Shown here one piece after another: positions 6,756 to 40,115 of a stretch of 64,000 nt of DNA. Origin of the DNA: Terriglobia bacterium (GTDB lineage Bacteria > Acidobacteriota > Terriglobia > 20CM-2-55-15); NCBI GenBank assembly GCA_965218585.1, contig CBDCLE010000023.1, positions 10,162 to 74,161 of the forward strand, read 5' to 3'. Made by a program: the position numbers and the translations under genes. Numbering within the stretch: the first letter of the stretch is position 1; each line of letters opens with the position of its first letter. Under the pieces are notes generated by a model that was not told the DNA's origin, searched no databases, and saw only the letters and a program-made list of their open reading frames with translations.

Positions 6756-6846
6756 GGGCTTGCGATCAGGATGATCGCGAGCGTCGCCCTGCTTTCACAT
6801 AGAAGACTCAGACAGGATGTCTGAAGAACGACCGAGCGAAATCTTC
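6756..6846 (+). repeat. Two-hairpin intergenic element, copy A
   Basis: GCTTGCGATC-AGGAT-GATCGCGAGC GTCGCC ... TCAGAC-AGGAT-GTCTGA ... GAGCGAAATCTTC. Confidence 0.85.
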
Positions 6847-6859
6847 TCCCGACCCCCAC

Positions 6860-7813
6860 CTAAGCCTTTCCGAACTTCGAGTTACCGACGATCTTTTCCA
6901 CAATCGAGTAGGGATCCTGCTTGCGTTCTGCAATCTCTTTAATGAGCTGATCCAGGTCTCCATCAGGGAACACTTCATCGACGGCAGCCGCCACAAGTCT
7001 CTCCTGTAACTGGGTCATCAGGCGTTGCCGGGCGGCATCCCGCTTCTTCTGTGTTCGGATCTTCGAATCTTCGAAAACCTGTCTGCACTCCTCGATTCGT
7101 TCGACCAGTTCGGTGGTTCCTTCTCCGGTGGTCGCCACGGTCTTGACGATCGGGGGATTCCAGTCATCCGGGCGGTGGGCCAGGGAGAGCATGGCGCCAA
7201 TCGCGCTCTCGATCTTGTCGACACCGGGATGATCGGACTTGTTGATCACGAAGATATCGCCGATTTCCATAAGGCCGGCCTTGATCGCCTGAACGTCGTC
7301 TCCCATACCCGGAACCAGGACGACCACCGAAATATCCGCCAACTTTACGATCTCGATCTCATCCTGACCCACACCGACAGTTTCGACGATGATCGGGTCG
7401 CGACCCGCCGCATCCAGAACTGTGACTACATCAGCAGTCGTCGATGCCAGACCGCCCAGGTTACCGCGAGTCGCCATACTGCGAATGTAGATCCCCGGAT
7501 CGACACCCAGAGTCTGCATCCGAATCCGATCACCGAGAATTGCGCCGCCCGTGAAAGGGCTGCTCGGATCGACAGCCACAATCCCCACGCTTTTGTCGCT
7601 CTGCCTGTAATCGATCGCCAATCGATCCACCAGTGAACTCTTCCCCGCTCCCGGACTGCCGGTCACACCGATCACCTGAGACTGCCCGGTCTTGGGGAAC
7701 AGCGCTTTAAGAATCTCCAGGCTGTCCGGGGATCGGTTTTCGACCCGTGTGATCGCCCGGGCCAAGGCCCGTATGTCACCGCTAAGGACTTCTTTTAGAA
7801 GTGAGTTATCCAT
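6860..7813 (-). CDS. meaB: Methylmalonyl-CoA mutase-associated GTPase (ArgK/MeaB), paralogue 1
   Basis: GSPGAGKSS, AVDPSSPFTGGAILGDRIRM, ETVGVGQ, NKSD. Confidence 0.92.
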   Translation of the reverse strand: MDNSLLKEVLSGDIRALARAITRVENRSPDSLEILKALFPKTGQSQVIGVTGSPGAGKSSLVDRLAIDYRQSDKSVGIVAVDPSSPFTGGAILGDRIRMQTLGVDPGIYIRSMATRGNLGGLASTTADVVTVLDAAGRDPIIVETVGVGQDEIEIVKLADISVVVLVPGMGDDVQAIKAGLMEIGDIFVINKSDHPGVDKIESAIGAMLSLAHRPDDWNPPIVKTVATTGEGTTELVERIEECRQVFEDSKIRTQKKRDAARQRLMTQLQERLVAAAVDEVFPDGDLDQLIKEIAERKQDPYSIVEKIVGNSKFGKA

Positions 7814-7893
7814 CAGTGGCTTAGTTCTCGTTGGTAATTTCCATCAATGGCATTGTATCGCAGCCACGACCAGCGGAACCGAAACCCGCTGGT

Positions 7894-7973
7894 GGGAAAT
7901 TCAGGACAGACCCCTGTTTCCAAAAAACGAAAGAGTTGCTTACGGAAAGAGGGATCTGTCCCTGGAATTTCCC
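7894..7973. repeat. REP/REPIN-like imperfect inverted repeat
   Basis: GGGAAATTCAGGACAGACCCCTGTTTCC ... GGAAAGAGGGATCTGTCCCTGGAATTTCCC. Confidence 0.6.
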
Positions 7974-7989
7974 GTAAAATACACCGCCT

Positions 7990-8391
7990 ATGACCGAAGT
8001 ACGACTGCAAACCCACTGGCCCGATTGCGATCCCGCCGGGATCGTCTATTTCGCAAACTTTTTCCGCTTTGTGGGCATCGCCGAGGAAGAGATGTTCCTT
8101 CTCGCCAACAAGCGACGTCAGAAGATACTCGATGACCACGACATCTGGATGCCCCGGGTGGAAACCCACGCGAAGTTCATCAGACCGATTCAGAGTGGAT
8201 CGGCGATTCGAATACGCATGGACCCGCAGTTCAAAGGCTCAAAGACCGTGCGCTTCGAGTTTGAGGTTATCGACGACGAGACAGAGGCATTGTTTGCAAC
8301 CGGCTTTTTGACGGTGGTCTGCGTGGATCGGGAAACGTTCAAAGCCAAACCGATACCGGAAGAAATTAAAAACATCTTGAGTGGAAAGTAA
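7990..8391 (+). CDS. Acyl-CoA thioesterase (4HBT/YbgC hotdog family)
   Basis: DCDPAGIVYFANF motif, 133 aa. Confidence 0.88.
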   Translation: MTEVRLQTHWPDCDPAGIVYFANFFRFVGIAEEEMFLLANKRRQKILDDHDIWMPRVETHAKFIRPIQSGSAIRIRMDPQFKGSKTVRFEFEVIDDETEALFATGFLTVVCVDRETFKAKPIPEEIKNILSGK

Positions 8392-8505
8392 CTTCTTAGC
8401 GCGCCGACGCCTCGGCTCCGCGTCTTTATTTGAAAGCGGTCCACCCGCACCGGCGGACCGGCGCGGGTCCTCCTCTACCTGCTTCAAAATTCCCCTGATC
8501 CAATT

Positions 8506-8584
8506 GGCCTCTCCATCATCCTGATGGAGAGGGTCGCCGGTCGTTCGGCCAGGATGGCCGATTGAACGACCGAGCGAAATCTTC
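8506..8584 (+). repeat. Two-hairpin intergenic element, copy B (first loop inverted)
   Basis: CCTCTCCATC-ATCCT-GATGGAGAGG GTCGCC GGTCGTTCGGCC-AGGAT-GGCCGATTGAACGACC GAGCGAAATCTTC. Confidence 0.85.
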
Positions 8585-8641
8585 TCCAGTGAGCATTTGA
8601 CTAATCCCAACTTTCCCAACACTAATCATGAATAGACACGC

Positions 8642-8677
8642 AAAAAAGCCGGTACCCGCTTTATAGCAGGTACCGGC
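8642..8677 (-). terminator. Rho-independent terminator of the LLM oxidoreductase gene
   Basis: On the minus strand: GCCGGTACCTGC-tataaa-GCGGGTACCGGC-TTTTTT. Confidence 0.8.
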
Positions 8678-8698
8678 CCATAAGACTGTGCGATTAGT

Positions 8699-9625
8699 TT
8701 ACTTAATGTGAGGCAACACGTCCTTGGCAAACCATTCGATCTTCTCTCGACGCTCCGGCCAACGGCCTTTCATGAACTGAAGCGCGATGTGCTTCACGCC
8801 GATGTCCTTGAACTTGTTGATCGACTCGATCAACTGTTCGGGCGTACCCTCGAAGACATCATCCTGCTGGTCTACCGGATCCTTGGTAATCTCAACCGGA
8901 CGGCAGCAGCAAAGGTCAACCTGACCCTCCCTGCCGAGCTCGGCAGCGGCTTTCTGAACCCTGCTGTACTTGGCAGCCAGATCCTCGGCCGAGATCTTCA
9001 CGTGGTAAGAGAACCATGCATCACCATACTTGGCCGCGCGGTTGACCGCAGCTTCACTCTCTCCACCCGTCCAGATCGGGAAACGGGGATCCTGAACCGG
9101 TCTGGGACTGACCGACAGCGGTTCGAAATCGTAATGTTTTCCGTGGTAACTCGGCTTGTCCGATTTCCAGAGGGTATTGAAGATCTCGAGCTGCTCGTTA
9201 CCCATCGCGCCCCTCTTTTTGAAAGGCACACCCAGGGCGTTGAATTCCTCGATCATCCAGCCGATTCCGGCTCCAAGGATGAGCCGACCGTTTGAAAGCG
9301 TATCGATGGATGTCGCGACGCGGGCCGTATAGAGCGGATGGCGAAACGGCAAAACGGCTACGCTGATACCCAGTTTGACCTTCTTGGTCACTCCGGACAG
9401 GAAAGCCAGGCAGGTCAGCGGCTCAAGAAACGGAACGTCAGGTGGAACGAACCACTGTGAGTTGTCCTTATAGGGGTAGGCCGTTTCCATTAGCCATGGA
9501 TTCACAAGGCGTTCTGCTGCCCAGACCGAATCGTAGCCTGCGTTCTCGGCCTGCTGGGCAGCGTCGGTCAAAACTTCAGGAACCGCGGCGCGGCCAGAGA
9601 CTGGGAGAAAGACTCCAACTTCCAT
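8699..9625 (-). CDS. LLM-class (luciferase-like) oxidoreductase, probably F420-dependent
   Basis: GYDSVWAAE, EPLTCLAFLSG, LSNGRLILGAGIGW, PIWTGG; close to cofGH. Confidence 0.85.
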   Translation of the reverse strand: MEVGVFLPVSGRAAVPEVLTDAAQQAENAGYDSVWAAERLVNPWLMETAYPYKDNSQWFVPPDVPFLEPLTCLAFLSGVTKKVKLGISVAVLPFRHPLYTARVATSIDTLSNGRLILGAGIGWMIEEFNALGVPFKKRGAMGNEQLEIFNTLWKSDKPSYHGKHYDFEPLSVSPRPVQDPRFPIWTGGESEAAVNRAAKYGDAWFSYHVKISAEDLAAKYSRVQKAAAELGREGQVDLCCCRPVEITKDPVDQQDDVFEGTPEQLIESINKFKDIGVKHIALQFMKGRWPERREKIEWFAKDVLPHIK

Positions 9626-10038
9626 AAGAAATGTGCCTCCTTACTTTGATTAGGCAGAATTGTATTCTTGTTAAAACTTCGGCGAATCTTCAAACCAGTC
9701 GCGGGTCATCGCAGGAAAGAGGAGCTCTGCCGATCGCACAGAGTAGCAGATGCACCGCATCTGGTGCAAGCTGCGGGTGGTACTGGAAAAAACGCCGCTA
9801 AAGGCGTCTCGGGTCCGGCTATTTCAAACGCGAGTCAGGGCCATAGCCAACTGCTTCCCCTGTCTCATTTTCAATCACTTCCGGCCCCATTCCGGCCCCC
9901 ACTCTTGATATATACTGGGCCCTCGGATCAGCCAATGGCCCTCCTGTCCGGCCAACCTCAGAGGTTCAAGAGTCCGCTGGGTGCTCCCGGACCCGTTCCC
10001 GATAACAGCCATTGCGGATCTCCAATAGAATTAAGCAC

Positions 10039-12228
10039 ATGACCACGGGAAAACATCCAGAACCTGATCGGCCGGAGGACTGGCAGGAGCGGGCTCGGAC
10101 AGAATCCAGGGGCAGGCCTCTCGAAGAACTCAACTGGGAGACCCCCGAGGGCATCCGCGTCAAGCCTCTGTACACGGCCGACGATTTGGACGAGATCTCC
10201 CACCTCGGCAACCTGCCCGGGTTCGCACCGTACGTCCGCGGCCCAAAAGCCACGATGTATGCCGGTCGGCCATGGACGGTTCGCCAGTACGCGGGTTTTT
10301 CCACAGCCGAGGAATCCAACGCGTTTTACCGGAATAACTTGGCCGCTGGTCAGACCGGTCTTTCGGTCGCATTCGACCTGGCTACACACAGGGGCTACGA
10401 CTCGGATCATCCGCGTGTGGTGGGCGATGTGGGCAAGGCCGGCGTGGCTATCGATACGATCGAGGACATGAAGATCCTGTTCGACGGTATGCCCCTGGAG
10501 CAGATGTCGGTGTCGATGACGATGAACGGAGCGGTCCTGCCAATCATGGCGATGTACATCGTTGCCGCCGAGGAACAGGGCGTCAGTCCGGACCAGTTGG
10601 CGGGTACGCTCCAGAACGACATCCTGAAGGAATTCATGGTCCGAAATACCTATATCTATCCGCCCGAGCCTTCGATGCGAATAGTGGCCGACATCATTTC
10701 TTATACCGCCCGGCACATGCCCAAATTCAACTCGGTATCCATCTCCGGCTACCACATGCTGGAAGCCGGAGCCACCAGCGTGCAGGAACTGGGGTTCACG
10801 CTGGCCGACGGGATCGAATACGTGCGTGCAGCCCTCGGCAACGGATTAAAGGTCGATCAATTCGCACCCCGACTTTCGTTCTTCTTTGGTATCGGAATGA
10901 ACTTCTTCATGGAAGTCGCAAAACTCCGGGCGGCAAGGTTGCTCTGGTCCTCGCTGATCGAGGAACTGTTCTCGCCCCAAGACCCCCGCTCGTTGATGCT
11001 GCGAACACATTGCCAGACATCAGGCGTCAGCCTGACGAGTCAGGACGCTTACAACAACATCGTCCGCACGACCGTGGAGGCCATGGCTGCTGCCCTGGGC
11101 GGCACCCAGTCACTCCACACAAATTCCTTCGACGAAGCCCTCGCCTTGCCCACGCCGTTCTCCGCTCACATCGCACGCAATACACAGCTTGTGCTACAAG
11201 AAGAAACTGGAATCACACGCGTGGTCGATCCGCTCGCCGGGTCCTACTACGTCGAGAGTCTGACCGCTTCGCTTGCAGCCGAAGCCCGGAAGCTCATCGA
11301 TGAAGTCGAAGAACTCGGGGGTATGACCCGGGCCGTCGAATCCGGCATGCCGAAGATGCGAATCGAGCAGGCCGCGGCGCTCAGGCAGGCTCGCATCGAC
11401 CGTGGGGAAGAGGTCGTCGTCGGTGTGAACAAGTATCGGCGCGAGGACGAACCGGACATTGAAATTCTGGACATCGATAACCGAGCGGTGCGGAAGGGCC
11501 AGATTGAGCGTCTGGACAGGGTTCGGAAAGAGAGGGACGAGTCGCCATGCCAGGCTCGACTGGAGGCTTTGACAGCCGCAGCAGAAGCAGGCACCGAGAA
11601 CCTGCTTGTCCTGGCCATCGATGCCGCCAGGGCACGAGCAAGCGTCGGGGAAATTTCCGATGCTGTTGAGAAGGTGTACGGACGCCACAAGGCAGTCATT
11701 CACTCGGTTAGCGGCGTCTACGGATCTGCTTACGAGGGAGACATTGGCTTTATGGAGATCCAGCGGGACATCGACGCGTTCGCACGTGAAGAAGGCCGGC
11801 GGCCCCGCATACTGATTGCCAAGCTGGGTCAAGATGGGCATGATCGCGGCGCCAAGGTTATCGCGACGGCGTTCGCCGACATCGGGTTTGACGTCGATAT
11901 CGGCCCGCTGTTCCAAACTCCGGAAGAAGCCGCAGGGCATGCCATCGAAAACGACGTTCACGTCGTCGGCGTGTCGTCTCAAGCGGCAGGCCACAAAACG
12001 CTTGTTCCCCAGCTGTTGGATTCGCTCAAGAAGCAAGGCGCGAACGAAATCATCGTTGTGTGCGGGGGTGTCATCCCACCGCAGGACTACGACGAACTGA
12101 AGGCCGCCGGCGTAGCCGCGGTGTATGGACCGGGAACGAACATCCCTGTGGCGGCCGGTGAAGTACTGAACCTGATTCGTGAAAGGCGGAAAGCCACACT
12201 AGCGACGCCACAACCAAAGAAGGTTTAA
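10039..12228 (+). CDS. scpA: Methylmalonyl-CoA mutase (B12-dependent)
   Basis: [23 protein letters not shown]12-binding GQDGHDRG. Start placed at ATG 10039. Confidence 0.96.
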
Positions 12229-12240
12229 TCGGAGACGTTC

Positions 12241-13773
12241 ATGCAAGACATCATCGAACAATTGGAACAAATGCGATCAGCCGCGAAACTCGGCGGCGGC
12301 AAAGACCGTATCCAGAAACAACATGCGAAGGGCAAACTGACAGCGCGCGAGCGCATCGAACTGCTCCTCGACTCCGGTAGCTTCGAAGAATGGGATATGT
12401 TCGTCGAACATCGGTCGACCGACTTCGGCATGGGCGACAACAAGATACCCGGTGACGGCGTCGTTACCGGCTACGGAACGATCAACGGCCGACTCGTCTT
12501 CGTCTTCAGCCAGGACTTCACCGTGTTCGGTGGGTCGTTGTCGGAAGCCCACGCGGAAAAAATCTGCAAGGTAATGAAGCAGGCCATGAAGGTCGGCGCT
12601 CCGCTGATCGGATTGAACGATTCCGGGGGTGCACGCATCCAGGAAGGAGTTGCCTCCCTGGGCGGCTATGCCGATGTCTTTCAGCAGAACGTCCTGGCCT
12701 CAGGTGTCGTCCCCCAGATCTCGCTGATCATGGGCCCCAGTGCCGGCGGTGCAGTCTACTCCCCAGCGATCACTGACTTTATCTTCATGGTACGAGACAG
12801 TGCTTACATGTTTGTGACCGGGCCCGACGTCGTCAAGACTGTCACTCATGAAGAAGTCACGGCCGAGGAACTCGGCGGGGCGGTCACACACACCTCGAAA
12901 TCCGGGGTGGCCGATCTGGCATTCGAAAACGACGTCGAAGCGCTGCTGATGACGCGGCGGCTCGTCAATTTCCTTCCTCCGAATAACAAAGACAAACCGC
13001 CTACCTGGCCCACATCTGATCCGATGAGCCGCGTGGAATGGTCCCTGGACAGCCTTGTACCTGACGATCCGGCCAAGCCATACGACATGAAGGAATTGAT
13101 CGTGAAGGTAGCCGACGAAGGCGATTTCTTCGAGATACAGACCGAATACGCCAAGAACATTGTTGTGGGGTTCATTCGCATGGAAGGATCGACCGTCGGC
13201 GTCATAGCCAATCAGCCCATGGTCCTGGCAGGCTGTCTGGACATCAATTCGTCGGTGAAAGGAGCGCGTTTTGTCCGTTTCTGCGACGCTTTCAACATAC
13301 CCATGCTGACGCTGGTCGATGTGCCGGGATTCATGCCGGGCACCGCCCAGGAATACGGCGGCATCATCAAACAAGGGGCAAAACTACTGTATGCCTATGC
13401 GGAAGCCACGGTGCCCAAAGTTACCGTCATTACGCGCAAAGCCTACGGTGGGGCCTATGACGTCATGTCCTCGAAGCACCTGCGCGGAGACGTCAATTTT
13501 GCATGGCCGAGCGCCGAGATTGCAGTGATGGGACCGAAAGGAGCCGTAGAAATCATTTTCCGCCAGGACCTGGGAGACGAAGAGAAGATCGCGGAGCGGA
13601 CCGAAGAATATCGGAAAAAGTTCGCGAATCCATTCATCGCGGGAAGCCGCGGATACATCGACGATGTCATCATGCCGAGAAATACACGCGCACGGGTTGC
13701 ACGGTCCTTCGCGATGCTCAGGAACAAGTCGCTGGAGAATCCCTGGCGTAAACATGGAAACATTCCTTTGTAG
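12241..13773 (+). CDS. pccB: Propionyl-CoA carboxylase beta (carboxyltransferase)
   Basis: [32 protein letters not shown]. Confidence 0.95.
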
Positions 13774-13802
13774 ATGAAGCAGCACGCCAAGAAAGCGATC
13801 AC

Positions 13803-15788
13803 ATGTTCGAAAAGATTCTGATAGCAAACCGGGGTGAAATCGCCTGCCGGGTCATGAAAACCGCGAAGAAGATGGGAATCCGCACGGTGGCCGTGTATTC
13901 GGATGCCGACCGGGACGCCGTGCACCGGCGGATGGCAGATGAAGCCGTGCGTATAGGCCCGCCGCCCGCAGCCGAGAGCTATCTGGTGGTAAACAACATT
14001 CTGGACGCGATCAGGGAAACAGGCGCCGAGGCCGTGCATCCCGGCTACGGCTTCCTTTCTGAAAACGCAGCCTTCCGAGAGGCACTCGAGGGCGCTGGCG
14101 TCACCTTTATCGGTCCCGGCGTTGAGGCGATCAACAGCATGGGCGACAAGATCACGTCCAAGAAGCTGGCCGCCGATGCCGGCGTCAATACGATTCCCGG
14201 ATTCGGGGAGACAATCGAGAGTGGGGATCATGCCGTAAAAGTGGCGCGTGAAATTGGTTACCCCGTGATGCTGAAGGCCAGCGCGGGTGGTGGCGGAAAA
14301 GGCATGCGCGTTGTGATCAGCGACGAAGAGACACGCGAGGGTTTCGAGCGTGCGACAAACGAGGCTCAGACCAGCTTCGGCGACGGTCGTGTGTTCGCCG
14401 AGAAATTCATCGAACAGCCGCGGCACATCGAAATCCAGGTGCTCGCCGACACGCAGGGGAACACGATCTTTCTGGGCGAACGCGAGTGTTCCATTCAGCG
14501 GCGCCACCAGAAAGTGATCGAAGAGGCCCCGTCGCCTTTCCTGAACAGGTCCACACGAGAAGCAATGGGTAAACAGGCCGTGGCACTAGCCAGATCGGTG
14601 AACTACTGTTCGGCGGGAACGGTTGAATTCATCGTCGATGCCAAGCGTGACTTCTATTTCCTCGAGATGAATACGCGCTTGCAGGTCGAACACCCTGTGA
14701 CCGAACTGGTAACCGGCCTGGATCTGGTGGAGTTGATGATTCGTATCGCTGCAGGTGAGGCACTCGACATCCGGCAAAAGGACGTGAAGCTGAAAGGCTC
14801 GGCGATCGAGAGCCGGATCTATGCGGAGGATCCGTTCCGCAATTTCATGCCGTCCACAGGCCGACTGGTGCGCTATCAGGCACCGATTGAGACAAAAGTC
14901 ACCCGGATTGATACGGGAATCGAAGAAGGCAGTGAAGTTTCCATGTTTTACGACCCGATGATCGCCAAGCTCATCACCTATGGAGACGACCGGGCCCAGG
15001 CTCTCCGGCGAATGGGCGACGCGCTCGACGCCTACTATATCCGCGGCGTGTCGCATAACATCAGCTTCCTGAACGCTCTGATCGCCCATCCCAGGTTCAT
15101 TAAGGGGAAACTGAGCACGAGTTTCATCGCTGACGAATTCCCTGACGGCTTTCATGCAAACCACGTCCCTCACCACGATCCTGTCCTGCCGGTAGCTGTC
15201 GCCGGAGCCGTCCACCAGAAACATATGCTCCGTGGAGCAGAACTCTCAGGCCAGCTGCCCAGCCACGAACGCCGGGTCGGTGACAGATGGACGGTCATTG
15301 TCGACAAGAAACACTGGGCCATAACCGCAAGGCCCATTGAGGGCGGTTTCGAGATCAAGCACGGTAAGAGCACTTACAGTGTCATGACGGAATGGGAGAT
15401 TGGTAATCCCTTGTTTCGGGCGGAGATCAACGGCCAACAAGTCTGCTTTCAGATTGACGACGAGGGCGCCCGATATCGGTTGTCACATCGCGGCTCACAA
15501 GTGGATGCGCTTGTCATAACGCAGAAGGCGGCGGAACTGAACCGTCATATGCTCGAAAAGCAGCCGCCAGATCTTTCGAAGTTTCTGCTGTCGCCAATGC
15601 CGGGGCTCTTGATCCAGCTCCGGGTGAAGGCGGGTGACCAGGTCAAGGCGGGCGAGGAACTGGCCGTGGTCGAAGCGATGAAAATGGAAAACAGCCTACG
15701 GTCTTCCGAAGACGTCACTATTCGGAAAACACTCGCAGCCCAAGGGGATAGCCTCGTCGTCGATCAACCGATCTTGGAATTTGAATAA
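13803..15788 (+). CDS. pccA: Propionyl-CoA carboxylase alpha (biotin carboxylase + BCCP)
   Basis: ILIANRGEIA, EMNTRLQVEH, biotinylation motif EAMKM. Confidence 0.95.
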   Translation: MFEKILIANRGEIACRVMKTAKKMGIRTVAVYSDADRDAVHRRMADEAVRIGPPPAAESYLVVNNILDAIRETGAEAVHPGYGFLSENAAFREALEGAGVTFIGPGVEAINSMGDKITSKKLAADAGVNTIPGFGETIESGDHAVKVAREIGYPVMLKASAGGGGKGMRVVISDEETREGFERATNEAQTSFGDGRVFAEKFIEQPRHIEIQVLADTQGNTIFLGERECSIQRRHQKVIEEAPSPFLNRSTREAMGKQAVALARSVNYCSAGTVEFIVDAKRDFYFLEMNTRLQVEHPVTELVTGLDLVELMIRIAAGEALDIRQKDVKLKGSAIESRIYAEDPFRNFMPSTGRLVRYQAPIETKVTRIDTGIEEGSEVSMFYDPMIAKLITYGDDRAQALRRMGDALDAYYIRGVSHNISFLNALIAHPRFIKGKLSTSFIADEFPDGFHANHVPHHDPVLPVAVAGAVHQKHMLRGAELSGQLPSHERRVGDRWTVIVDKKHWAITARPIEGGFEIKHGKSTYSVMTEWEIGNPLFRAEINGQQVCFQIDDEGARYRLSHRGSQVDALVITQKAAELNRHMLEKQPPDLSKFLLSPMPGLLIQLRVKAGDQVKAGEELAVVEAMKMENSLRSSEDVTIRKTLAAQGDSLVVDQPILEFE

Positions 15789-15794
15789 CGCGGC

Positions 15795-16784
15795 ATGTCG
15801 TCACCCGATGCCAACAAGCTCGCCCAAACCGTCCTCGGCGGGGATCGCCGAGCCCTCGCCCAAGCCATTACCCTGATCGAATCTACCCGCCCTGAAGATC
15901 GTCAAGGGGCCCATGTCCTTCTGGAAATACTCGTTCCGAAAGCAGGTCAGTCGATTCGAATCGGTATTTCGGGTGCCCCGGGTGTCGGAAAATCTACCTT
16001 CATTGAAAGCCTTGGAAACTACCTGATCGGTGAAGGCCACAAGGTTGCTGTCCTCGCAGTCGATCCCTCTTCGGCCCTCAGCGGAGGATCGATACTCGGC
16101 GACAAGACGCGGATGGAACTGTTGTCACGAAAGCCGGAAGCTTTTATCCGGCCGTCTCCCTCCGGAACGACGTTGGGAGGAGTCACGCGGCGAACCCGGG
16201 AAACGATGCTCGTCGCCGAAGCTGCTGGTTTCGACGTGTTGCTCATCGAAACCGTCGGCGTCGGACAGTCCGAAACCGCCGTCGCCCAAATGACTGATAT
16301 GTTCATCCTGATGCTGTTGCCGGGAGGCGGGGATGACCTGCAGGGAATCAAGAGGGGCATCGTTGAACTGGCGGACTTGATCCTGGTCAACAAGTCCGAT
16401 GGCGACATGCAGCCGGTTGCCGAACGCTCGGTCACCGACTATCGAAACGGATTGCACTTCTTGCGTCCGCGCAGTGAGCACTGGCAAGTGCCGGTGGAGG
16501 GCTATTCGGCGATCGAGGGTTCAGCTACTCCCCGGGTGTGGGAGATTGTAGAGCAATACCAGAAGGCGCTGGTCGACGCAGGTGAGATCGAACGAAAACG
16601 TGAGGATCAGGCAAGGGCGTGGATGTGGAGCGAGGTCACCGATGAATTGCTCGATGAGCTCAAGGACGATCCCGACGTGAAGGGAAAGATCGCCGAGCTC
16701 GAGCGGAGGGTCACAGAAGGCAGTTTGTCACCGACTGTGGCCGCACAGGAATTGATCGCCGCTTTCCTGAAGCGAGATAGCTGA
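15795..16784 (+). CDS. meaB: MeaB GTPase, paralogue 2
   Basis: GAPGVGKST, GGSILGDKTRM, ETVGVGQSE; within the mutase operon. Confidence 0.94.
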   Translation: MSSPDANKLAQTVLGGDRRALAQAITLIESTRPEDRQGAHVLLEILVPKAGQSIRIGISGAPGVGKSTFIESLGNYLIGEGHKVAVLAVDPSSALSGGSILGDKTRMELLSRKPEAFIRPSPSGTTLGGVTRRTRETMLVAEAAGFDVLLIETVGVGQSETAVAQMTDMFILMLLPGGGDDLQGIKRGIVELADLILVNKSDGDMQPVAERSVTDYRNGLHFLRPRSEHWQVPVEGYSAIEGSATPRVWEIVEQYQKALVDAGEIERKREDQARAWMWSEVTDELLDELKDDPDVKGKIAELERRVTEGSLSPTVAAQELIAAFLKRDS

Positions 16785-16798
16785 CGTTTGTGAGGGTC

Positions 16799-17203
16799 AT
16801 GATTGGAAAGCTCAATCACGTGGCAATAGCCGTACCGGATCTCGAGCAGGCGGTCGCCGTCTACAAGGGACTTCTGGGCGCGAGCGTGTCGCCCCCAGTC
16901 GAGCTTCCCGAACACGGCGTGACGACAGTCTTTGTCGAATTGCCCAACACCAAGATCGAACTGCTGCATCCGCTGGGAGAGGACTCACCGATCGGACGGT
17001 TCCTCGAGCGCAATCCTTCGGGAGGAATGCATCACGTCTGCTATGAGGTGGAGGATATTCTCGCGGCCCGTGACAAGCTGACGGCAGCTGGTGCGAGAGT
17101 GCTCGGGGATGGAGAACCGAGTATCGGGGCTCACGGGAAACCCGTGCTGTTTCTGCACCCTAAGGATTTCTGCGGGACGCTGATTGAGCTCGAGCAGGTC
17201 TAG
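16799..17203 (+). CDS. mce: Methylmalonyl-CoA epimerase
   Basis: MIGKLNHVAIAV, GGMHHVCYEV, FLHPKD..GTLIELEQ. Confidence 0.95.
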   Translation: MIGKLNHVAIAVPDLEQAVAVYKGLLGASVSPPVELPEHGVTTVFVELPNTKIELLHPLGEDSPIGRFLERNPSGGMHHVCYEVEDILAARDKLTAAGARVLGDGEPSIGAHGKPVLFLHPKDFCGTLIELEQV

Positions 17204-17290
17204 AAGCCGCCGGCTATCGAAAATCGCCTTCTCTCCCGACGGCCTGTCCCCAAGCCGGCACACTCCAGCTGATCCCACTTTACTCACTTC

Positions 17291-17369
17291 GAAGATTTCG
17301 CTCGGTTGTTCATTCGGACATCCTGTCCGAACGACCGGCGACGCTCGCGATCATCCTGATCGCAAGCCC
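17291..17369 (-). repeat. Two-hairpin intergenic element, copy C
   Basis: Minus strand: GCTTGCGATC-AGGAT-GATCGCGAGC GTCGCC GGTCGTTCGGAC-AGGAT-GTCCGAATGAACAACC GAGCGAAATCTTC. Confidence 0.88.
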
Positions 17370-17414
17370 TTTTTTCGGACAAGATTGGACGTTGTGGGGA
17401 GAGGCTGTCAGGCA

Positions 17415-18544
17415 CTACCCAAAAACATAAACGACGCCGTCGGTCGAACCGATCACGACCCGGCCATCGGCGATCGCCGGGGACGCGGTCAAGTCGGCTC
17501 CCGTGTTGAACTCCCACAGGTTAGATCCCGTGGTGGCGTCGAGCACGTACAGTCGCCCATCACTCGACCCGACGTAGACACGGCCGCCCGCGATTGCCGG
17601 AGACGAGTCCACGCGAGCGCGTGTCTCGAAGGTCCAGGCTGCTTCGCCGGTCGCGGTGTCAATCGCATGTACGAACTTGTCCCGTCCGCCGAGAATGATC
17701 CGACCGTCTTCCAGAGCTGCGGAAGAGTAATAGGGAAACTGTCTGTTCGGGTTGCTGTAGCGCCAGAGAACACTTCGGTCGGTGAGGTCCAGCCCCAGGA
17801 CTTCGTACTCGAAGGTTCCGAAATAGGCCCGATCGCGATCTAGCAACGGAGAGGCGGCCGTGTAGGCGCCCGCGATAATCTGGTACGCCTCTGTCCCGTC
17901 AGCGACACGGACCGCGCGGAAGATTCCATCGCACCCTGCAATAAACGCCAAACCGTCCTGGACTGCAGGCGTTGCATGCACCATGCTATCGGTCTGAAGT
18001 TTCCAACGGAGACTCCATCACCCGTGTCGAGCGCGTACAGGTGGGTGTCATAGGAACCAATTAGCACGACATCGTCTACGACGACCGGTGACGCCTTGAT
18101 CTCCCCGTCCGTTTGATATGTCCACAGAGGCTGGCCGTCTTCGGTACGCACCGCGTGAACGAACCCGTCGAGATCACCGACGTAGACAGTGCCCTGGTCG
18201 ATAGCGGGGGAAGATTCCACGATGAAACTCCCCGTGGAATAGCTCCACTTGAGTTCCCCGGATTCCAGATCAAGAGCAATCAGGTCGCCGTTGCCGACGC
18301 CCACATACACAACACCGTCTGCGATCGCGGCTGATGAGTCGATGGCATCCCCTGTCTCATAACTCCAGAGCAACTCCAAACTGCTGGGTGGAACCGTAGC
18401 CGCAACACCCGTCAGAGCAGGATCGCCACGAAACTGACTCCAGTTTTTGCTTCGAGCCGGGTCGGGTGTCTGGGCGGACACAGACGCAACCACGCCCATG
18501 AGGATCAGGAGAACGGATGACTTACGAATCAAACCAGACTTCAT
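17415..18544 (-). CDS. Secreted PQQ-like beta-propeller (frameshift near 18015, probable sequencing error)
   Basis: WSQFRGD start and regular SSPAIADG.V blades. Adding one G to GG at ~18015 restores GDGSLRWKLQTDSMVHATP. Confidence 0.82.
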
Positions 18545-18554
18545 TGGTCCATGG

Positions 18555-20018
18555 TTATTCGGCCGACAGCGCAAACAACTGGTTGCGGTTGTTCATGAAC
18601 AATGCCCCGTGCGCTGGAACGACAGTCGAATAGACTGCACTCCCCATGTTCATTTCAGCGAGCACATTTTCATCTCGCCCGTGTTCGAGGACGACGACGT
18701 CGCCGTCTTCGTCTCCAAGATAGACTCTACCGTCAACTACGAAAGCCGAGCCCCAAATGGCTGCGAAGGTATCGTGAACCCAGTAGGGCTCACCTGTGGC
18801 AGCATCGAGGCAGTGCAGGTAGCCGCTGAAGTCGGCGATATAGACCAGGCCGTCAACAACGGCAGCCGTGGAAATGGAACGACGGATATCCTCGTAGTGC
18901 CAAATGGCGCCGCTTTCTGTAATATCCCCGCTTCGGGTCGCATCGATCGCATAGAAATGCCCGACGCCTTCTCCATGCTCCGGGTCCTGTCCGTTTCCGA
19001 TGTAAACACGGTCTTCGTAGATGACAGGCGTTGAGATGACTTCGTTGCGTGTTCGCGGCCACACCGAGTCTTTCGGGTTCGTGTCAAACTCCCACAGCTT
19101 TTCGCCTGTCTCGGCCACGTAGCCACGCACCCACCCGTCACCCTGCGCAGAAACCACCTGGATGACGCCGTCGATCTCGCCCACCGAAGGCGTTGACCAC
19201 TGCCCGTGCAGGATCCGATCTTCGACAGAGTTGTCTTCCCAGACCCACTCGCCCGTGTCTTTGTTGATAGCGACAATCGACGGAGCCAGGGGAGAAGGCA
19301 CATTGACATGACTTTCATCATGACCGTTGGACGTGCTTACAAATATCAAATCCTCCCACATGACGGGAGAGGAGTTGGACATGTTGTGCGGGTAAGCACC
19401 CACTTCTTCCAACATGTCGAATTCCCAGAGGACATCGGCATCGAATTCCCCGGTGCGTTCCTCATCGGTGATCGCGCCATCGTTCTCTCCGTCACGGAAA
19501 CCCTGAATGTCCAACGCCGTGACCACTCCGCGATTCGTCGTGTAATAGAGACGCTCGTCCACAACCAATGGTGAGGAGGCTACGCCCTGAAATGGCCAAT
19601 CGTTGGCCCGTCCCGCCTCCAGCTTCGTATGCGTCTGCTGCCACAGGAACTCGCCGTCGGACTCTCGAAACGCCATCAGAACGCCACGATCTCCAGGTTG
19701 ATCGGGATCGCGCAACAACTCGTTGTTCGTTCCAACGAAGACCATTCCTCCTGCAACAACGGGATTGCCATAACTCTGTGAACCCAGATCAGCCACCCAC
19801 TTGACGTTACGTCCGGTTTCCACGTCCCACTCCGCCGGCAGACCGGTCATTTCCGACACCATGTTGCGGTCCGCGGTCCCGCCCCACATCGGCCAGTCTC
19901 CGGTTCCCGGCTCTCCGGGCTGCGTTCTCGCCGGAGCGCCCTCGGGGGCACACACCAATGCGATAACGAGAATGACAAAAGGCTTTGAGTTTTTCAAAAA
20001 TCGCATATATCTATCCAT
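18555..20018 (-). CDS. Secreted PQQ-like beta-propeller
   Basis: Signal peptide, WPMWGG..RN, GNPVVAGG and propeller blades. Start 20018 or 20006. Confidence 0.85.
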   Translation of the reverse strand: MDRYMRFLKNSKPFVILVIALVCAPEGAPARTQPGEPGTGDWPMWGGTADRNMVSEMTGLPAEWDVETGRNVKWVADLGSQSYGNPVVAGGMVFVGTNNELLRDPDQPGDRGVLMAFRESDGEFLWQQTHTKLEAGRANDWPFQGVASSPLVVDERLYYTTNRGVVTALDIQGFRDGENDGAITDEERTGEFDADVLWEFDMLEEVGAYPHNMSNSSPVMWEDLIFVSTSNGHDESHVNVPSPLAPSIVAINKDTGEWVWEDNSVEDRILHGQWSTPSVGEIDGVIQVVSAQGDGWVRGYVAETGEKLWEFDTNPKDSVWPRTRNEVISTPVIYEDRVYIGNGQDPEHGEGVGHFYAIDATRSGDITESGAIWHYEDIRRSISTAAVVDGLVYIADFSGYLHCLDAATGEPYWVHDTFAAIWGSAFVVDGRVYLGDEDGDVVVLEHGRDENVLAEMNMGSAVYSTVVPAHGALFMNNRNQLFALSAE

Positions 20019-20048
20019 TACCTCTGCCTTCCGACCCTTCCCCCCAAC

Positions 20049-20131
20049 GGCTTGCAATCAGGATGATTGGGAGCGTCGCCGGGCTTCTTGCATTCAGACG
20101 TCCTGTCTGAATGCAAGATCAAGCGAAATCC
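20049..20131 (+). repeat. Two-hairpin intergenic element, copy D (second loop inverted)
   Basis: GCTTGCAATC-AGGAT-GATTGGGAGC GTCGCC ... CTTGCATTCAGAC-GTCCT-GTCTGAATGCAAG ... AGCGAAATC. Confidence 0.8.
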
Positions 20132-20157
20132 TATTCTTGCGAGCCTAACTCAAGCCC

Positions 20158-33768: not shown

Positions 33769-33872
33769 GCAACTCTCCTAAAGATTCTCCGAAACAGAGC
33801 CTCAACAGGGCCTATGAAGGAGCGCCCATCCTCTTTAGCTAGGACATAGCCCAGGCGATTCTTCTACTCTTC

Positions 33873-33901
33873 TTGACAAAATTCCGTCTATTTTGTACAA
33901 T
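33873..33901 (+). promoter_or_regulatory. Sigma70 promoter of the toxin gene, probably giving a leaderless transcript
   Basis: TTGACA-17 bp-TACAAT, then 6 nt to ATG 33908, with no SD. Confidence 0.8.
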
Positions 33902-33907
33902 TTGTTC

Positions 33908-34168: not shown

Positions 34169-34222
34169 AGCTGTGCGGTGCATGACTCCCGGTGCTGGTG
34201 TGGCGGTTAAAGGAGAATCAAT

Positions 34223-34492: not shown

Positions 34493-34669
34493 AGAAAAGC
34501 CGAAAAAATAGCAGCAAAATGAAAAGGACGACGGGAGGGGACTTACATACTCCCCCAGCTTGCCGACACTCTAAATCACCACCAATATAGCGATTAGTGT
34601 ATTAATATGTGCTGATAATCCGATTCCTTTCATGGCGACGAATCAGAAAACGAAATAATCAGCGCTGAG

Positions 34670-37303: not shown

Positions 37304-37458
37304 CAGGTCGCCGTTAGAAGAGCACGATACGCGACCGGTGTCAGCATTAACGATCAGAAACCACTCCCAGTGCCGGTCACCTGACGACCACAACTGCGGG
37401 TTCGATAACATCCCCGACGCCATCTCGGTGGTGCGAAGTTCGTTATACTATTTCGGCT

Positions 37459-38574
37459 ATGGAAGTTGCTGGTCCCACAAACAGGGAGGCCTCCCCAGCC
37501 CAGGTAGAAGCAGCTCGCAATGCGCTCGATGACTGGGTCCGTGAAGTCGTTGACTGGCACTTTGATCCGGCAACCGGGTCTCCATTCTGGCTTGAGCGCG
37601 CGAAGGAACTCGGCTGGGACCCCCGCCGGGAAATCCTGAGCTTCAGCGATCTCGGCCGCTTCGGGCCGTTCGAAGACGAGTGGTTGCGCGGCGGTCCCGT
37701 CGAGCGATGGGTACCCAGTGGTCTCGCGGATAAGGCCGTATTCGTATTCGAAACAGGCGGTACCACAGGCATTCCGAAGACACGCATCAACTGCGAAGAC
37801 TTCAGGACGGACTACGAGGTGTTCAGCGACACGCTTCCCGAAGAGTATTTCCCGAAGGGAGCAAACTGGCTCATGGTCGGACCTTCCGGTCCCCGTCGGC
37901 TGCGCCTGGCTGTAGAACACCTTGCCCAGTACCGCGGCGGCATCTGCTTCCTGGTGGATCTGGATCCCCGCTGGGTCATCAAGCTCATCAAGAAAGGATG
38001 GACCGAACACCTGGAGGCCTACAAGAACCACGTGATCGATCAGGCTGTAACGATCCTCCAGGCCAACCACGACATTCACTGCCTGTTTGCAACGCCGAAA
38101 CTACTTGAAGCCCTGGCCTTGCGCCTGGAATCGATGGACACGACGATTCACAAGGAAGGCATCACAGGTGTGTTCTCCGGAGGCACCGAGTTCACACCCC
38201 AGTGGAATCGTTTTGCGCACGAAGAATTGCTCGACGGAGCATACATGACCCCGACATACGGCAACACCTTGATGGGCCTTGCCCCAAGTGCTCCCAGCGG
38301 TCCAGCGAACGCCTACAAGATCTCTTACTACGCACCACAACCGCGCGGAGTCATTGAAGTCATCGATCCCGATGATCCGGACCGTGTCGTCGGATACGGC
38401 GAAACCGGCCGAATCAAGGTCACCACCCTGACAAAGGAATTCTTCATGCCGGGCTTCCTCGAACGCGATGAAGGTGAACGGGAACCGCCGTCGGATCTCT
38501 ACCCATGGGATGGAGTGAGCGGTGTGCGGCCTTTCGGTAAACTGCCTACGGCGACCACCGTAGGCGTGTACTAG
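37459..38574 (+). CDS. EhpF/GriC-like atypical adenylate-forming enzyme
   Basis: WHF..TGSPFWL, ETGGTTG.PK P-loop, DLDPRWV, GGTE, YGETG, ERD and C-terminal GVY all match the EhpF motifs as I recall them. Confidence 0.8.
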   Translation: MEVAGPTNREASPAQVEAARNALDDWVREVVDWHFDPATGSPFWLERAKELGWDPRREILSFSDLGRFGPFEDEWLRGGPVERWVPSGLADKAVFVFETGGTTGIPKTRINCEDFRTDYEVFSDTLPEEYFPKGANWLMVGPSGPRRLRLAVEHLAQYRGGICFLVDLDPRWVIKLIKKGWTEHLEAYKNHVIDQAVTILQANHDIHCLFATPKLLEALALRLESMDTTIHKEGITGVFSGGTEFTPQWNRFAHEELLDGAYMTPTYGNTLMGLAPSAPSGPANAYKISYYAPQPRGVIEVIDPDDPDRVVGYGETGRIKVTTLTKEFFMPGFLERDEGEREPPSDLYPWDGVSGVRPFGKLPTATTVGVY

Positions 38575-38582
38575 TTTATAAA

Positions 38583-40013
38583 ATGATTACCCTTCCCGTC
38601 CTGCGCTGGGGTCAACCCTACGACAGCCTCGATATAGACGAAGTCGTCCATTTCTCGACGGGTGAGCCGGTCGCAAGGATCGGGCGCGCCAACAGCGGAC
38701 TGATCCAGCGGGACATGCGCCGCGCCCAACGGGCCCGGGACGCCCTCAGGACCATCCCGGTCGGCGAACTGCTCGAAAGGTTCCAGCGTGCGGGCGAGAT
38801 TTACATGACCGGCACGGTTCCAATGGGTGACGGAGGGCAGACCCCTGAACAGTTTGTGACAGCCCAGTCGGCCAGCACCGGTCTGCCCGAAAACATGTGC
38901 CGGGCAAACATGGACAAGAACCGTTTCGTCCTGAACGAAATGGGAAACATCCTCGCTTCGTTGACACGGGGATTAGACCTGGAGATCCTGAACCGGGGTT
39001 TCGGCGAGGAGCATGAGGTCCCGATAAGCTATCAGGCTCAGAGTCCGGTCCTCGGCGTCGTACTGCCGTCTAATTCTCCCGGTGTACACACCCTGTGGCT
39101 GCCGATGCTCGCGTTGCAGATCGGCCTCGTCCTCAAGCCCGGACCGCAGGAACCCTGGACGCCATACCGAATGGCCAACGCTTTCTTCGAAGCGGGCATT
39201 CCAAGGGAAGCGATTTCAGTGTATCCGGGCGAAGCCGACGTCGGTGCGGCCGTACTCGCAGCCTGCCCCCGCAGCATGATCTTTGGTGATGAGACGACCG
39301 TGGACCGTTATCGGGGTGATCCGCGGGTCCAACCGCACGGACCGGGCTTCTCGAAGATTATCTTCGGTGACGACCAGGTGGACGATTGGGAAAAACACCT
39401 GGACCTGATGGTGGAAAGTGTTGCTGTCAACAGCGGACGTAGCTGTATCAATACCTCGGGGATATGGGTGAGTCGACACGCCGGAGAAATCGCCAATGCC
39501 CTGGCCAGAAGACTCGCCGAGATACAACCCCTTCCGCCCCAGGATCCGGAGGCCGGATTGGCGGCGTTCACGGTGCCCGGCGTAGCCGAAGCCATTTCGC
39601 AATCGATCGATGTCGATGTCCAGGCACCCGGGGTTCGGGACGTCTCTTCCGAGTATCGTGAAGGGAGTCGCGTCGTAGACGCCGGACTCGCCGACTATCT
39701 GCTGCCAACCGTGATCCACTCCGAGTCACCGGACACCAGCATTGCGAGAAAGGAATACATGTTCCCTTTTGTCAGCGTCGTCGAGTGTTCCGAAGCTGAC
39801 ATGATTCGGGCCATCGGACCCACGTTGGTTTGCAGCGCGATCACCTGTAACGAAGATTTCCGCAGACAACTCGTGGATGCGGTAAACATCGACCGGCTGA
39901 ACCTCGGCCCGGTGCCGACGACCAAGCTCAACTGGCTGCAACCCCACGAAGGGAACATCGTCGATTTCCTATTTCGCGCACGGGCATTCCAGAACGCGCC
40001 GTTCACGGGTTGA
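38583..40013 (+). CDS. EhpG/GriD-like ALDH-fold acyl-AMP reductase
   Basis: LPSNSPGVH, LKPG..EP, HGPGFSK, catalytic NSGRSCIN, EYMFPFV. Confidence 0.75.
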   Translation: MITLPVLRWGQPYDSLDIDEVVHFSTGEPVARIGRANSGLIQRDMRRAQRARDALRTIPVGELLERFQRAGEIYMTGTVPMGDGGQTPEQFVTAQSASTGLPENMCRANMDKNRFVLNEMGNILASLTRGLDLEILNRGFGEEHEVPISYQAQSPVLGVVLPSNSPGVHTLWLPMLALQIGLVLKPGPQEPWTPYRMANAFFEAGIPREAISVYPGEADVGAAVLAACPRSMIFGDETTVDRYRGDPRVQPHGPGFSKIIFGDDQVDDWEKHLDLMVESVAVNSGRSCINTSGIWVSRHAGEIANALARRLAEIQPLPPQDPEAGLAAFTVPGVAEAISQSIDVDVQAPGVRDVSSEYREGSRVVDAGLADYLLPTVIHSESPDTSIARKEYMFPFVSVVECSEADMIRAIGPTLVCSAITCNEDFRRQLVDAVNIDRLNLGPVPTTKLNWLQPHEGNIVDFLFRARAFQNAPFTG

Positions 40014-40036
40014 CGTGAGTCCTAATTTGCACGACG

Positions 40037-40115
40037 GAAGATTTCGCTCCCTCGTTCATTCAGACATCCTGTCTGAACGAGGGGCGACCCTCTCCATCAT
40101 CCTGATGGAGAGGCC
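40037..40115 (-). repeat. Two-hairpin intergenic element, copy E
   Basis: Minus strand: CCTCTCCATC-AGGAT-GATGGAGAGG GTCGCC CCTCGTTCAGAC-AGGAT-GTCTGAATGAACGAGG GAGCGAAATCTTC. Confidence 0.88.

Follow-up and report, generated by a model that had tools for sequence, protein, structure and literature searches.

Within the 64,000-nt stretch analysed here (the window), a first-pass annotation had described five dispersed two-hairpin elements, all of which we located by alignment at the positions and on the strands that it gave; Table 1 lists them as matched by a covariance model of the element (R1). Copy A is flanked by two minus-strand genes and lies 12 nt from the stop codon of a MeaB-like gene (6860-7813). 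Copy B is separated from the minus-strand gene 8699-9625 by a native terminator-like hairpin, and so lies past that terminator. Copy C lies between convergent genes, a glyoxalase-like gene (16790-17203, plus strand) and a PQQ-repeat gene (17415-17984, minus strand), and copy D lies between two minus-strand PQQ-repeat genes, overlapping the predicted, uncertain TTG start of the neighbouring ORF by ~12-20 nt, depending on the element boundary used. Copy E occupies a 142-nt spacer between an aldehyde dehydrogenase gene (38583-40013) and a glycosyltransferase gene (40156-41487), both on the plus strand.

Table 1. Element copies and neighbouring features, in window coordinates
Feature	Position	Strand	Description
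Copy A	6746..6850	+	R1 match 53.6 bits; short form, variant 5' arm of hairpin 2
Copy B, upstream modules (long form)	8406..8495	+	GACGCCTCGGCTCCGC-type module from ~8406, hairpin 8444-8467, then spacer
Copy B, core	8496..8588	+	R1 match 103.8 bits
Copy B, hairpin 1	8508-8532	+	flipped ATCCT loop at 8518-8522
Copy B, linker	8533-8538	+	
Copy B, hairpin 2	8534-8577	+	AGGAT loop 8551-8555; GATT bulge 8560-8563
Copy B, tail	to 8584	+	
Native terminator-like hairpin with T-run	8646..8679	-	between stop of gene 8699-9625(-) and tail of B
Copy C	17287..17379	-	R1 match 103.0 bits; canonical short form
Copy D	20038..20137	+	R1 match 43.5 bits; degenerate
Copy E	40033..40125	-	R1 match 104.3 bits; canonical short form

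The element has a core of ~93 nt with the layout first proposed for it, namely hairpin 1, GTCGCC, hairpin 2 and the tail GAGCGAAATC, and the stem variants quoted for it and the 4-nt bulge in copies B, C and E were likewise confirmed. Hairpin 1 consists of 10 bp and an AGGAT loop; hairpin 2 consists of 17 bp in three stacked segments, with one A bulge, one 4-nt bulge and again an AGGAT loop. The linker TCGC(C) pairs with G-A-GCGA of the tail, which makes hairpin 2 one long bulged stem. AGGAT loops had been ascribed to the copies, but the loop is ATCCT in hairpin 1 of B and GTCCT in hairpin 2 of D, both being flipped hairpins; in B the flip is visible as a reverse-strand sub-match on hairpin 1 (L016). 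The variant 5' arm of copy A, which weakens the outer stem of hairpin 2, is common to 10 of 57 copies in the source genome on our reading of the printed sequences. The unit forms the 3' portion of a larger mosaic, ~185 nt or more in length: further modules often precede the core, those upstream of B also precede ~17 of 37 full-length copies, and some copies carry nested inserts or sit in head-to-head dimers with a sister type. Window positions 8406-8583 match dozens of places in one congener (G003), at ~78-85% over ~180 nt.

The structure of the element is far above chance. In 24 canonical copies, 97.4% of 646 cells are paired, compared with 86.9% after shuffling and 30-41% after sliding the partners, and both-side changes occur in 13 of 27 pairs, a level reached by none of 500 shuffles. 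The observation that stems vary while pairing is kept thus persists with more copies aligned. The claim built on it, that selection acts on structure, can be upheld only weakly: the stems do stay paired, yet pairing matters to a hairpin-dependent DNA element as well. Because pairing matters for such DNA, and because one orthologous copy has been re-templated to a perfect palindrome, covariation is no proof of RNA function. The two strands fold about equally (-42.3 versus -38.3 and -47.0 versus -46.2 kcal/mol), and mismatch types give no strand signal (G·U 46 versus A·C 31, 17 of the G·U coming from one pair of one subfamily). Loops, linker and tail are more uniform than stems; the hairpin 2 loop is AGGAT in 37 of 57 copies and the hairpin 1 loop in 19 of 57, GGA also occurs in most other hairpin 1 loop variants, and the MFE folds of the loops form GGA triloops. 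In 13 of 57 rows of the model alignment, an insertion of 18-37 nt is placed within the loop of hairpin 2 or next to it.

The five window copies had been thought to imply many more genome-wide, and this was borne out by 57 nhmmer matches at E<0.01 and 58 R1 matches at E<=0.01 in the source genome, with R1 E-values as low as ~1e-27. All five genomes of the genus hold the element, with 58 copies in the source genome and 36 to at least 122 in the four congeners (G001-G004; the count for G003 is a lower bound). Outside the genus, 3 of 30 genomes of the same family carry one or two copies and the other 27 carry none; an R1 scan of 16 genomes from other families of the class found no copies. Exact 18-mers of the stem variants ACC, AGG and ATC occur, in that order, 20, 6 and 2 times in the source genome, 33, 2 and 1 times in G001, 4, 2 and 9 times in G002, 77, 1 and 11 times in G003, and 1, 1 and 4 times in G004, and a reversed control pattern occurs 0 times everywhere. 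Subfamily abundances are therefore species-specific, as lineage-specific bursts, and the family has multiplied and turned over within the genus. An unrecognised RNA motif had been one of the proposals, and Rfam gave no match at gathering score across the whole window, none on A or B at E<=10, and none of relevance at two composite loci (L203, L204). In plasmid and phage collections we found no record with sequence similarity to the element.

The copies show a preference for gene 3' ends, where the tail points to a stop codon; the AGGAT strand is then antisense to the gene concerned and coincides with the C-rich strand. All but one of the 58 copies lie between predicted genes, as called by a simple ad hoc caller, and convergent intergenic regions hold 21 copies versus 9.4 expected (chi-square p 1.8e-4). 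In 39 of 57 copies the gene on the tail side is encoded on the opposite strand, and its stop codon lies 10-113 nt from the tail. The AGGAT strand is the C-rich strand in 41 of 57 copies, in a skew test based on noisy 50-kb windows, in which gene orientation is a confounder (r 0.66). Where the genes lie on the putative lagging strand, no preference for antisense placement is left (4 versus 5).

Comparison of orthologous intergenic regions revealed insertions at sites empty in sister species. Eight sites of the source genome were compared; among those examined in all four congeners, none carries a copy in every one of them. The sites of A and B lack an R1 match in every congener; the gap at A measures just 55-70 nt in G001, G002 and G003, and that at B 84 nt in G001 and 147 nt in G003, versus ~340 nt in the source genome. 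Copy C has like-oriented counterparts in G002, G003 (long form) and G004 (with a loop insert) and is absent from the G001 site, where the gap is 40 nt; copy D has canonical counterparts in G003 and G004 (90-98 bits) and is absent from G001, where the gap is 6 nt. The counterpart of copy E in the nearest relative (L065) has the same place and orientation, but is of the long form, and the four stem pairs that differ between the two are all changed on both sides. Conversely, two G003 copies stand at sites empty in the source genome, one of them as a ~290-nt insert in the 3' end of a mutase gene. Copies are oppositely oriented in two of five shared intergenic regions, and sites C, D and E hold long versus short forms, or different stem variants, at the same site. 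At these three sites the cores are far better kept than the flanks; in our reading of the alignment at site D, G003 and G004 differ at 2-3 of ~75 core positions versus about a quarter of spacer positions. Core conservation and the compensatory changes at site E could reflect selection for a host function rather than conversion or re-insertion.

The copies also carry marks of rearrangement at the DNA level. Flipped hairpins occur in seven copies, affecting hairpin 1 in five and the inner hairpin 2 in two. In copy D, the inner hairpin 2 is flipped, as a reverse-strand sub-match (L036) shows, and the outer stem is rebuilt as a perfect 14-bp palindrome; the G003 and G004 copies are unflipped, and both the flip and the rebuild occurred in place, in the lineage of the source genome. 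A ~125-nt module is nested at an identical point of hairpin 1 in five loci and is also found free-standing. Most copies are single; there are five head-to-head pairs, mostly of type II with type I or III, whose outer ends agree on inspection at only about half of 10 positions.

As first suggested, any spreading enzyme lies elsewhere: the window encodes no transposase. A linked RAYT, by contrast, was sought and not found, as nine loci around Y1 genes in the five genomes contain no R1 match at E<=0.01. Of 41 related genomes, 30 have homologues of the source genome's Y1 (HUH) protein, and 25 of these 30 belong to other genera; the Y1 matches of G003 and G004 carry an in-frame stop. TnpB (PF07282) was not found in the source genome, which is 95% complete. 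Our search for related autonomous insertion sequences returned none, and one head-to-head and one tail-to-tail pair in G003, whose inner ORFs we scanned, enclose only housekeeping genes. No terminal inverted repeats were found: the 5' end (a ACTGACGCC-type module) does not recur in inverted form at the 3' end (GAGCGAAATC). Filled and empty sites are too diverged to fix the element ends; one well-bounded insertion has a possible long, diverged direct repeat, atypical of known transposases. Neither hairpin is flanked by GTAG in our alignments (A2/A3), and CGTC is confined to the one subfamily with a terminal C in hairpin 1, the other having GGTC.

Of the two readings originally offered, an unrecognised RNA motif is not favoured, and a REP/REPIN-like element is supported by the genus-confined multi-copy family, site polymorphism, species-specific subfamilies, flips, nested inserts, head-to-head dimers and the lack of a transposase in the window. 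We consider it probable, at roughly 0.7, that the elements are a genus-restricted family of interspersed mosaic palindromic DNA repeats comparable to REP/BIME, ERIC, BOX or MITE, which would make them a new repeat family of the REP/BIME/ERIC-like kind. Their spread would need hairpins formed in single-stranded DNA and an enzyme acting in trans, unlinked to the copies. Propagation would be limited to copies whose stems are intact, and template switching within hairpins, together with conversion from copy to copy, would repair stems; these processes would produce the compensatory pattern without any RNA function. By analogy with REP and ERIC, a copy that is co-transcribed with the preceding gene would probably impede 3'-to-5' RNA decay through its very stable double hairpin, or serve as a site of RNA processing, and a likely example is copy E in its short spacer between co-oriented genes.

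In the foremost alternative, the family is chiefly an RNA element of gene 3' ends under host selection. Its strand opposite AGGAT would belong to the mRNA directly downstream of the stop codon, serving there as a stabiliser, terminator or processing site, and copies would be kept for expression tuning. The placement of tails near opposite-strand stop codons, the enrichment of convergent regions, the fold that is very stable on the non-AGGAT strand too, the cores that outlast their flanks at C, D and E, and the spacer of E, which leaves little room for a separate promoter, all agree with this reading. However, sites are not conserved across the genus, orientation differs at two of the five shared sites, B lies past a native terminator, and the antisense preference does not extend to putative lagging-strand genes. 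The variant arm that weakens hairpin 2 has nevertheless multiplied to 10 of 57 copies. An intrinsic terminator was rejected specifically: in a terminator scan of window positions 6000-21000, no T-run that qualifies in the scan follows the element hairpins except the inner hairpin of A, and the hairpin near B, the sole strong terminator-like site near an element, is separate from it. We regard a mainly host-selected RNA element as doubtful.

There is a slim chance that the element could be a domesticated, structure-selected module, in which ~50 to >100 transcribed double hairpins, with two identical GGA loops each, would bind one loop-specific protein. Such a module could serve the distributed titration of a FliW-type CsrA, or its loops could be recognised by a nuclease or recombinase that also moves copies as single-stranded DNA. 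If true, domestication would explain why loops, linker and tail are uniform while stems drift with compensation, and why cores are better kept than flanks.

A CsrA role for the element is unlikely. The source genome has two CsrA homologues, and one csrA lies directly beside fliW and a flagellar gene; we take it to be of the type antagonised by FliW protein, not by sponge RNAs. The element might still be a CsrA-binding RNA, acting as cis sites or through AGGAT-strand transcripts that would form a distributed sponge with two GGA loops each, and GGA in two hairpin loops, which MFE folds close to GGA triloops, would suit this. Yet the first-pass doubt about a simple cis CsrA site was right and extends genome-wide, the AGGAT strand being antisense to the adjacent gene in most copies. 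Promoter-like sites before copies are at chance level (5 found versus 5.2 expected), hairpins are flipped in seven copies, the hairpin 2 loop is interrupted or abutted by insertions in 13 rows, the csrA context is fliW-flagellar, and 27 of the 30 family genomes outside the genus lack the family. We therefore judge such an RNA, predicted from sequence motifs, to be very improbable. Chance similarity or an assembly artefact is practically negligible: metagenome contigs do break at the elements, as at any repeat, but it is refuted by E-values of ~1e-27, by copies in five independently assembled genomes, one of them with two large contigs, and by their unique, syntenic flanks.

Among known systems, sponge RNAs of the CsrB/RsmZ type share GGA motifs in hairpin loops with the element, whose copies are, unlike them, dispersed and antisense to neighbours, have no promoter or terminator of their own that we could see, carry flipped or interrupted loops in many cases, and coexist with a csrA paired with fliW. 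The ends of IS200/IS605 elements and their miniature derivatives likewise form imperfect hairpins with conserved bulges, and a strand bias following GC skew (41/57, confounded with gene orientation) is a further likeness that would fit a single-strand, replication-linked mechanism; the differences are that TnpB was not found in the source genome and that Y1 genes are unlinked to copies. ERIC, BOX and Correia-type repeats and MITEs resemble the family in length (~100-200 nt), in a modular or mosaic make-up, in their strong secondary structure and in being polymorphic for insertion among related species. They too lie in transcribed intergenic regions, where orientation-dependent effects would be expected. 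In contrast to this group, the element showed no terminal inverted repeats, clear short target duplication or related autonomous insertion sequence, and no plasmid or phage record searched was similar to it in sequence.

REP/BIME sequences and REPINs, finally, differ in that the unit here is a fixed pair of different hairpins with a conserved linker and tail (93 nt) rather than a single 20-40-nt palindrome. A GTAG (or CGTC) tetranucleotide at the palindrome end is the REP criterion (PMC3733652); the element has no GTAG tag and has CGTC only where hairpin 1 happens to end in C. In the parts of that survey that treat distribution, GTAG repeats are listed in Proteobacteria, Cyanobacteria, Chloroflexi and the PVC superphylum and CGTC repeats in five phyla, and Acidobacteria stand in neither list, appearing only for TIR-flanked tyrosine transposases (PMC3733652). 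Unlike the Y1 genes of RAYT-associated REPs, those here have no copies beside them, and their occurrence does not follow that of the family. The likenesses to REP/BIME and REPINs are otherwise broad: tens to hundreds of short, GC-rich, imperfectly palindromic copies lie outside genes and are enriched at gene 3' ends, stem variants keep pairing, some copies form head-to-head dimers or are combined with other motifs into mosaics, abundance depends on the lineage and, by analogy, transcribed copies would probably affect mRNA decay.

The two-hairpin elements best fit a new mosaic palindromic interspersed repeat family, multiplied within one acidobacterial genus. All five copies in the first-pass annotation lie at the positions and on the strands claimed, and their alignment agrees with the layout described. 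Its expectation of many further copies is also borne out: an nhmmer search (E<0.01) with a profile of strict-pattern hits finds 57 places in the 4.55-Mb source genome (G000), and R1, a covariance model of the element, has 58 matches across the whole genome. In a MAFFT alignment of 24 canonical copies, on which a 27-pair structure was written, hairpin 1 comprises 10 bp and a 5-nt AGGAT loop. Hairpin 2 is a single long stem: at its base the linker TCGC(C) is paired to G-A-GCGA of the tail, and above this come helices of 8 bp and then 4 bp, separated by a 4-nt bulge and capped by another AGGAT loop. Pairing holds in 97.4% of 646 cells, compared with 86.9% when 3' partners are shuffled and 30-41% when partners are slid by 1-3 columns. 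Covariation, proposed from five copies, survives the added ones, with 13 pairs changed on both sides and observed values matched by 0 of 500 shuffles. Rfam returned no family at gathering score across the window and none on the elements at permissive thresholds.

The AGGAT loop, claimed for both hairpins, is read by the model alignment in hairpin 2 of 37/57 copies and hairpin 1 of 19/57. Reverse-strand R1 sub-hits reveal that hairpin 1 is wholly inverted in five copies, B included, and inner hairpin 2 in two, D included; the hairpin 1 loop reads ATCCT in 5/57 copies of the model alignment. At site D, the copies in two other species of the genus (G003 and G004) are canonical and unflipped, while the G000 copy is flipped and has its outer stem rebuilt to a perfect 14-bp palindrome. 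A templated DNA process can thus produce flips and double-sided stem changes in situ. Predicted fold stability is about equal on both strands, and G·U cells outnumber A·C cells 46 to 31, with 17 of the G·U cells coming from one pair of one subfamily; without that position the strand test gives no usable signal. Since both strands fold alike and the G·U excess comes from one subfamily, neither strand is marked as a folded RNA. By our reading of the sequences, 10/57 copies, A included, have in common a variant 5' arm through which hairpin 2 loses strength in its outer stem, and these copies multiplied despite it. The family is a clean case of strong covariation within a repeat turning over at the DNA level, and a warning case for RNA-motif discovery from covariation alone.

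The nearest named records are Acidobacteriota metagenome-assembled genomes. Among 41 related genomes sampled, all five of the genus carry 41 to at least 104 R1 matches, and two genomes of other genera carry one match each. Among 35 genomes of the family, R1 matches number 36 to at least 122 in the genus's five, 1-2 in 3 of the 30 outside the genus, and zero in the rest; in the class's other families, 0 of 16 genomes have an R1 match. In a finer search, which took in five genomes, congeners of the two other-genus genomes with single copies (L050 and L051) had none.

All four congeners (G001-G004) share synteny across the region with copies A-D, at about 76-83% identity in matched, mostly coding, blocks, a divergence between species too high for fixing element ends or target duplication. 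Orthologous loci include empty sites: A and B are unmatched in every congener, and C and D are missing in G001 (Table). Empty site A in G001 and G003 has its own perfect palindrome. Two intergenic regions shared within another 20-kb stretch have copies oriented opposite to those of G000. Sites C, D and E differ between species in long versus short form (core with or without upstream modules) and in stem variants, which correspond to major subfamilies of the repeat family. Exact 18-mers for three outer-stem variants were counted per species; the commonest occurs 77 times in G003 versus once in G004, and the reversed control pattern 0 times. On these counts, the pattern is one of lineage-specific amplification and replacement, and such species-specific subfamilies could mark strains or species. 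In four metagenome runs mapped to window positions 5500-21500, contigs break at elements, word depth is raised there, and joints across empty sites are lacking. The repeat breaks short-read assemblies of these uncultured organisms predictably. Some metagenome contigs join different propeller genes, which suggests paralogue cross-mapping.

Table. Positions of element copies and neighbouring features, with their state in related genomes (window positions unless a fetched locus, L, or a G000 contig, C, is named)
Feature	Position (strand)	Observation
Copy A	6746-6850(+)	R1 match in 0/4 congeners; gaps 55-70 nt in G001, G002, G003 vs about 200 nt in G000
Copy B	8496-8588(+)	Long form, start near 8406, upstream modules present; R1 match in 0/4 congeners; gaps 84 nt (G001), 147 nt (G003) vs about 340 nt in G000
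Copy C	17287-17379(-)	Occupied, same orientation, in G002, G003, G004; absent in G001 (gap 40 nt)
Copy D	20038-20137(+)	Occupied, same orientation, in G002, G003, G004; absent in G001 (gap 6 nt)
Copy E	40033-40125(-)	Copy present in nearest relative's locus L065
Extra G003 copy		Within equivalent of G000 mutase gene 3' end; tail faces shortened gene
Further extra G003 copy		Different place; corresponding G000 site empty
Second R1 match, nearest relative	L065:31-154(-)	67.7 bits; ~1.4 kb upstream of aldehyde dehydrogenase orthologue; no R1 match in corresponding window region
Single copies, two other genera	L050:1501-1594(-); L051:1501-1593(-)	Full architecture, many compensatory changes; L051 tail 7 nt from stop of opposite-strand gene
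Terminator-like hairpin	8646-8679(-)	Strong, with T-run; directly after luciferase-like monooxygenase gene, before copy B
Near-perfect hairpin, 82 nt	7892-7974(-)	Divergent spacer of MeaB-like and thioesterase-like genes; weak microRNA precursor model scores, owing to shape only; unrelated to element
Methylmalonyl-CoA mutase cluster	10012-16784 and 6860-7813	Two MeaB-type GTPase paralogues
PQQ/beta-propeller repeat genes	17415-22380	Three consecutive
csrA	L001:1405-2280 (G000:C2, around 393.5-394.3 kb)	Directly downstream of fliW, adjoining flagellar hook-associated or flagellin-like gene
Second CsrA-domain match	C10	
Second, G-rich repeat module	L203:135-260 (G000:C21:9915-10040)	~110-125 nt; about 11 more G000 places; nested in hairpin 1 at 5 loci, elsewhere free-standing or adjoining elements
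IS256-like IS	L202:18986-19901 (G000:C5:49486 to about 50852)	~1.37 kb, in hairpin 2 loop of one copy, remainder of which is partly deleted; terminal inverted repeats, 8-bp target duplication (AGGATGAC); many matches in G003 and G004, 79-98% identity

The family is built as a mosaic. Of 37 full-length copies, some 17 conserve upstream modules, in which a GACGCCTCGGCTCCGCC-type segment is accompanied by a second hairpin and a spacer, and window 8406-8583 has dozens of matches in one congener at ~78-85% over ~180 nt. A sister type (type II) keeps the architecture unchanged; its linker and tail differ yet still pair. Head-to-head pairs occupy five intergenic regions, and a ~125-nt module is nested at one fixed hairpin 1 point in five loci and stands alone elsewhere. 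Rfam was empty for this G-rich module, which we therefore rejected as a self-cleaving ribozyme, tRNA-like or other known RNA.

Placement relative to genes was scored on calls from our own simple gene caller (4058 genes, 85% coding in G000). In 39/57 copies the tail-side gene lies on the opposite strand and its stop is 10-113 nt away from the tail, and convergent intergenic regions hold 21 copies versus 9.4 expected by intergenic length (p 1.8e-4). The AGGAT strand is the locally C-rich strand in 41/57 copies. Genes on the putative leading strand have the element antisense 14 versus 2, those on the putative lagging strand 4 versus 5; copies in convergent or divergent regions sit on the C-rich strand 22 versus 10. 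Because this cross-table is too small and both factors are correlated, transcription and replication are inseparable on these numbers as causes of the orientation bias, and the large G003 contig displays no clean switch in copy strand pattern. A terminator scan of window positions 6000-21000 places copy B beyond a native terminator, and element hairpins fail it, except the inner hairpin of A.

Some use of the element by the host is favoured by the uniformity of loops, linker and tail, and by cores that at orthologous sites D and E are far better preserved than flanks; copy-to-copy conversion or re-insertion can account for both as well. A role with CsrA, of which G000 encodes two homologues, is unlikely given the fliW-adjacent csrA, which we take to be the protein-antagonised type, together with antisense orientation, flips and interrupted loops.

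Judging from the conserved bulged hairpins, the strand bias and the absence of inverted repeats at the ends, the palindromic repeat family would spread by a hairpin-dependent, probably single-strand, route that involves an unlinked enzyme. A RAYT link was rejected as a specific one: matches to Y1, an HUH/RAYT-type transposase domain, number two in G000, both weak, and 1-12 in congeners, those of G003 and G004 having an in-frame stop; a search around nine Y1 loci shows no adjoining copy at any; and 30 of 41 relatives have homologues of the G000 Y1 protein, 25 of these relatives being outside the genus. An autonomous parent was sought in one head-to-head and one tail-to-tail G003 pair, which enclose only housekeeping genes (transporter, prenyltransferase, peptidase, EF-P). 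Integron attC sites, considered because orientation after stop codons is fixed, were set aside since copies follow housekeeping genes genome-wide and are not arrayed; a TnpB/omega-RNA origin fails as TnpB was not found in G000, and a plasmid or phage origin as such records have no match. The concrete question the family raises concerns the unlinked enzyme that would move such a pair of hairpins with their conserved loops.

Proteobacteria and a few other groups have well-studied interspersed palindromic repeats. We found none described in this Acidobacteriota lineage, nor any description of this family in full-text literature; supplementary files might list Acidobacteria repeats. On present evidence the elements are not a new regulatory principle. 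The marks of REP used here, GTAG/CGTC and a RAYT, are those given in PMC3733652. Copy E is likely co-transcribed, and where copies are co-transcribed they may plausibly act as a decay barrier, by analogy with REP or ERIC.
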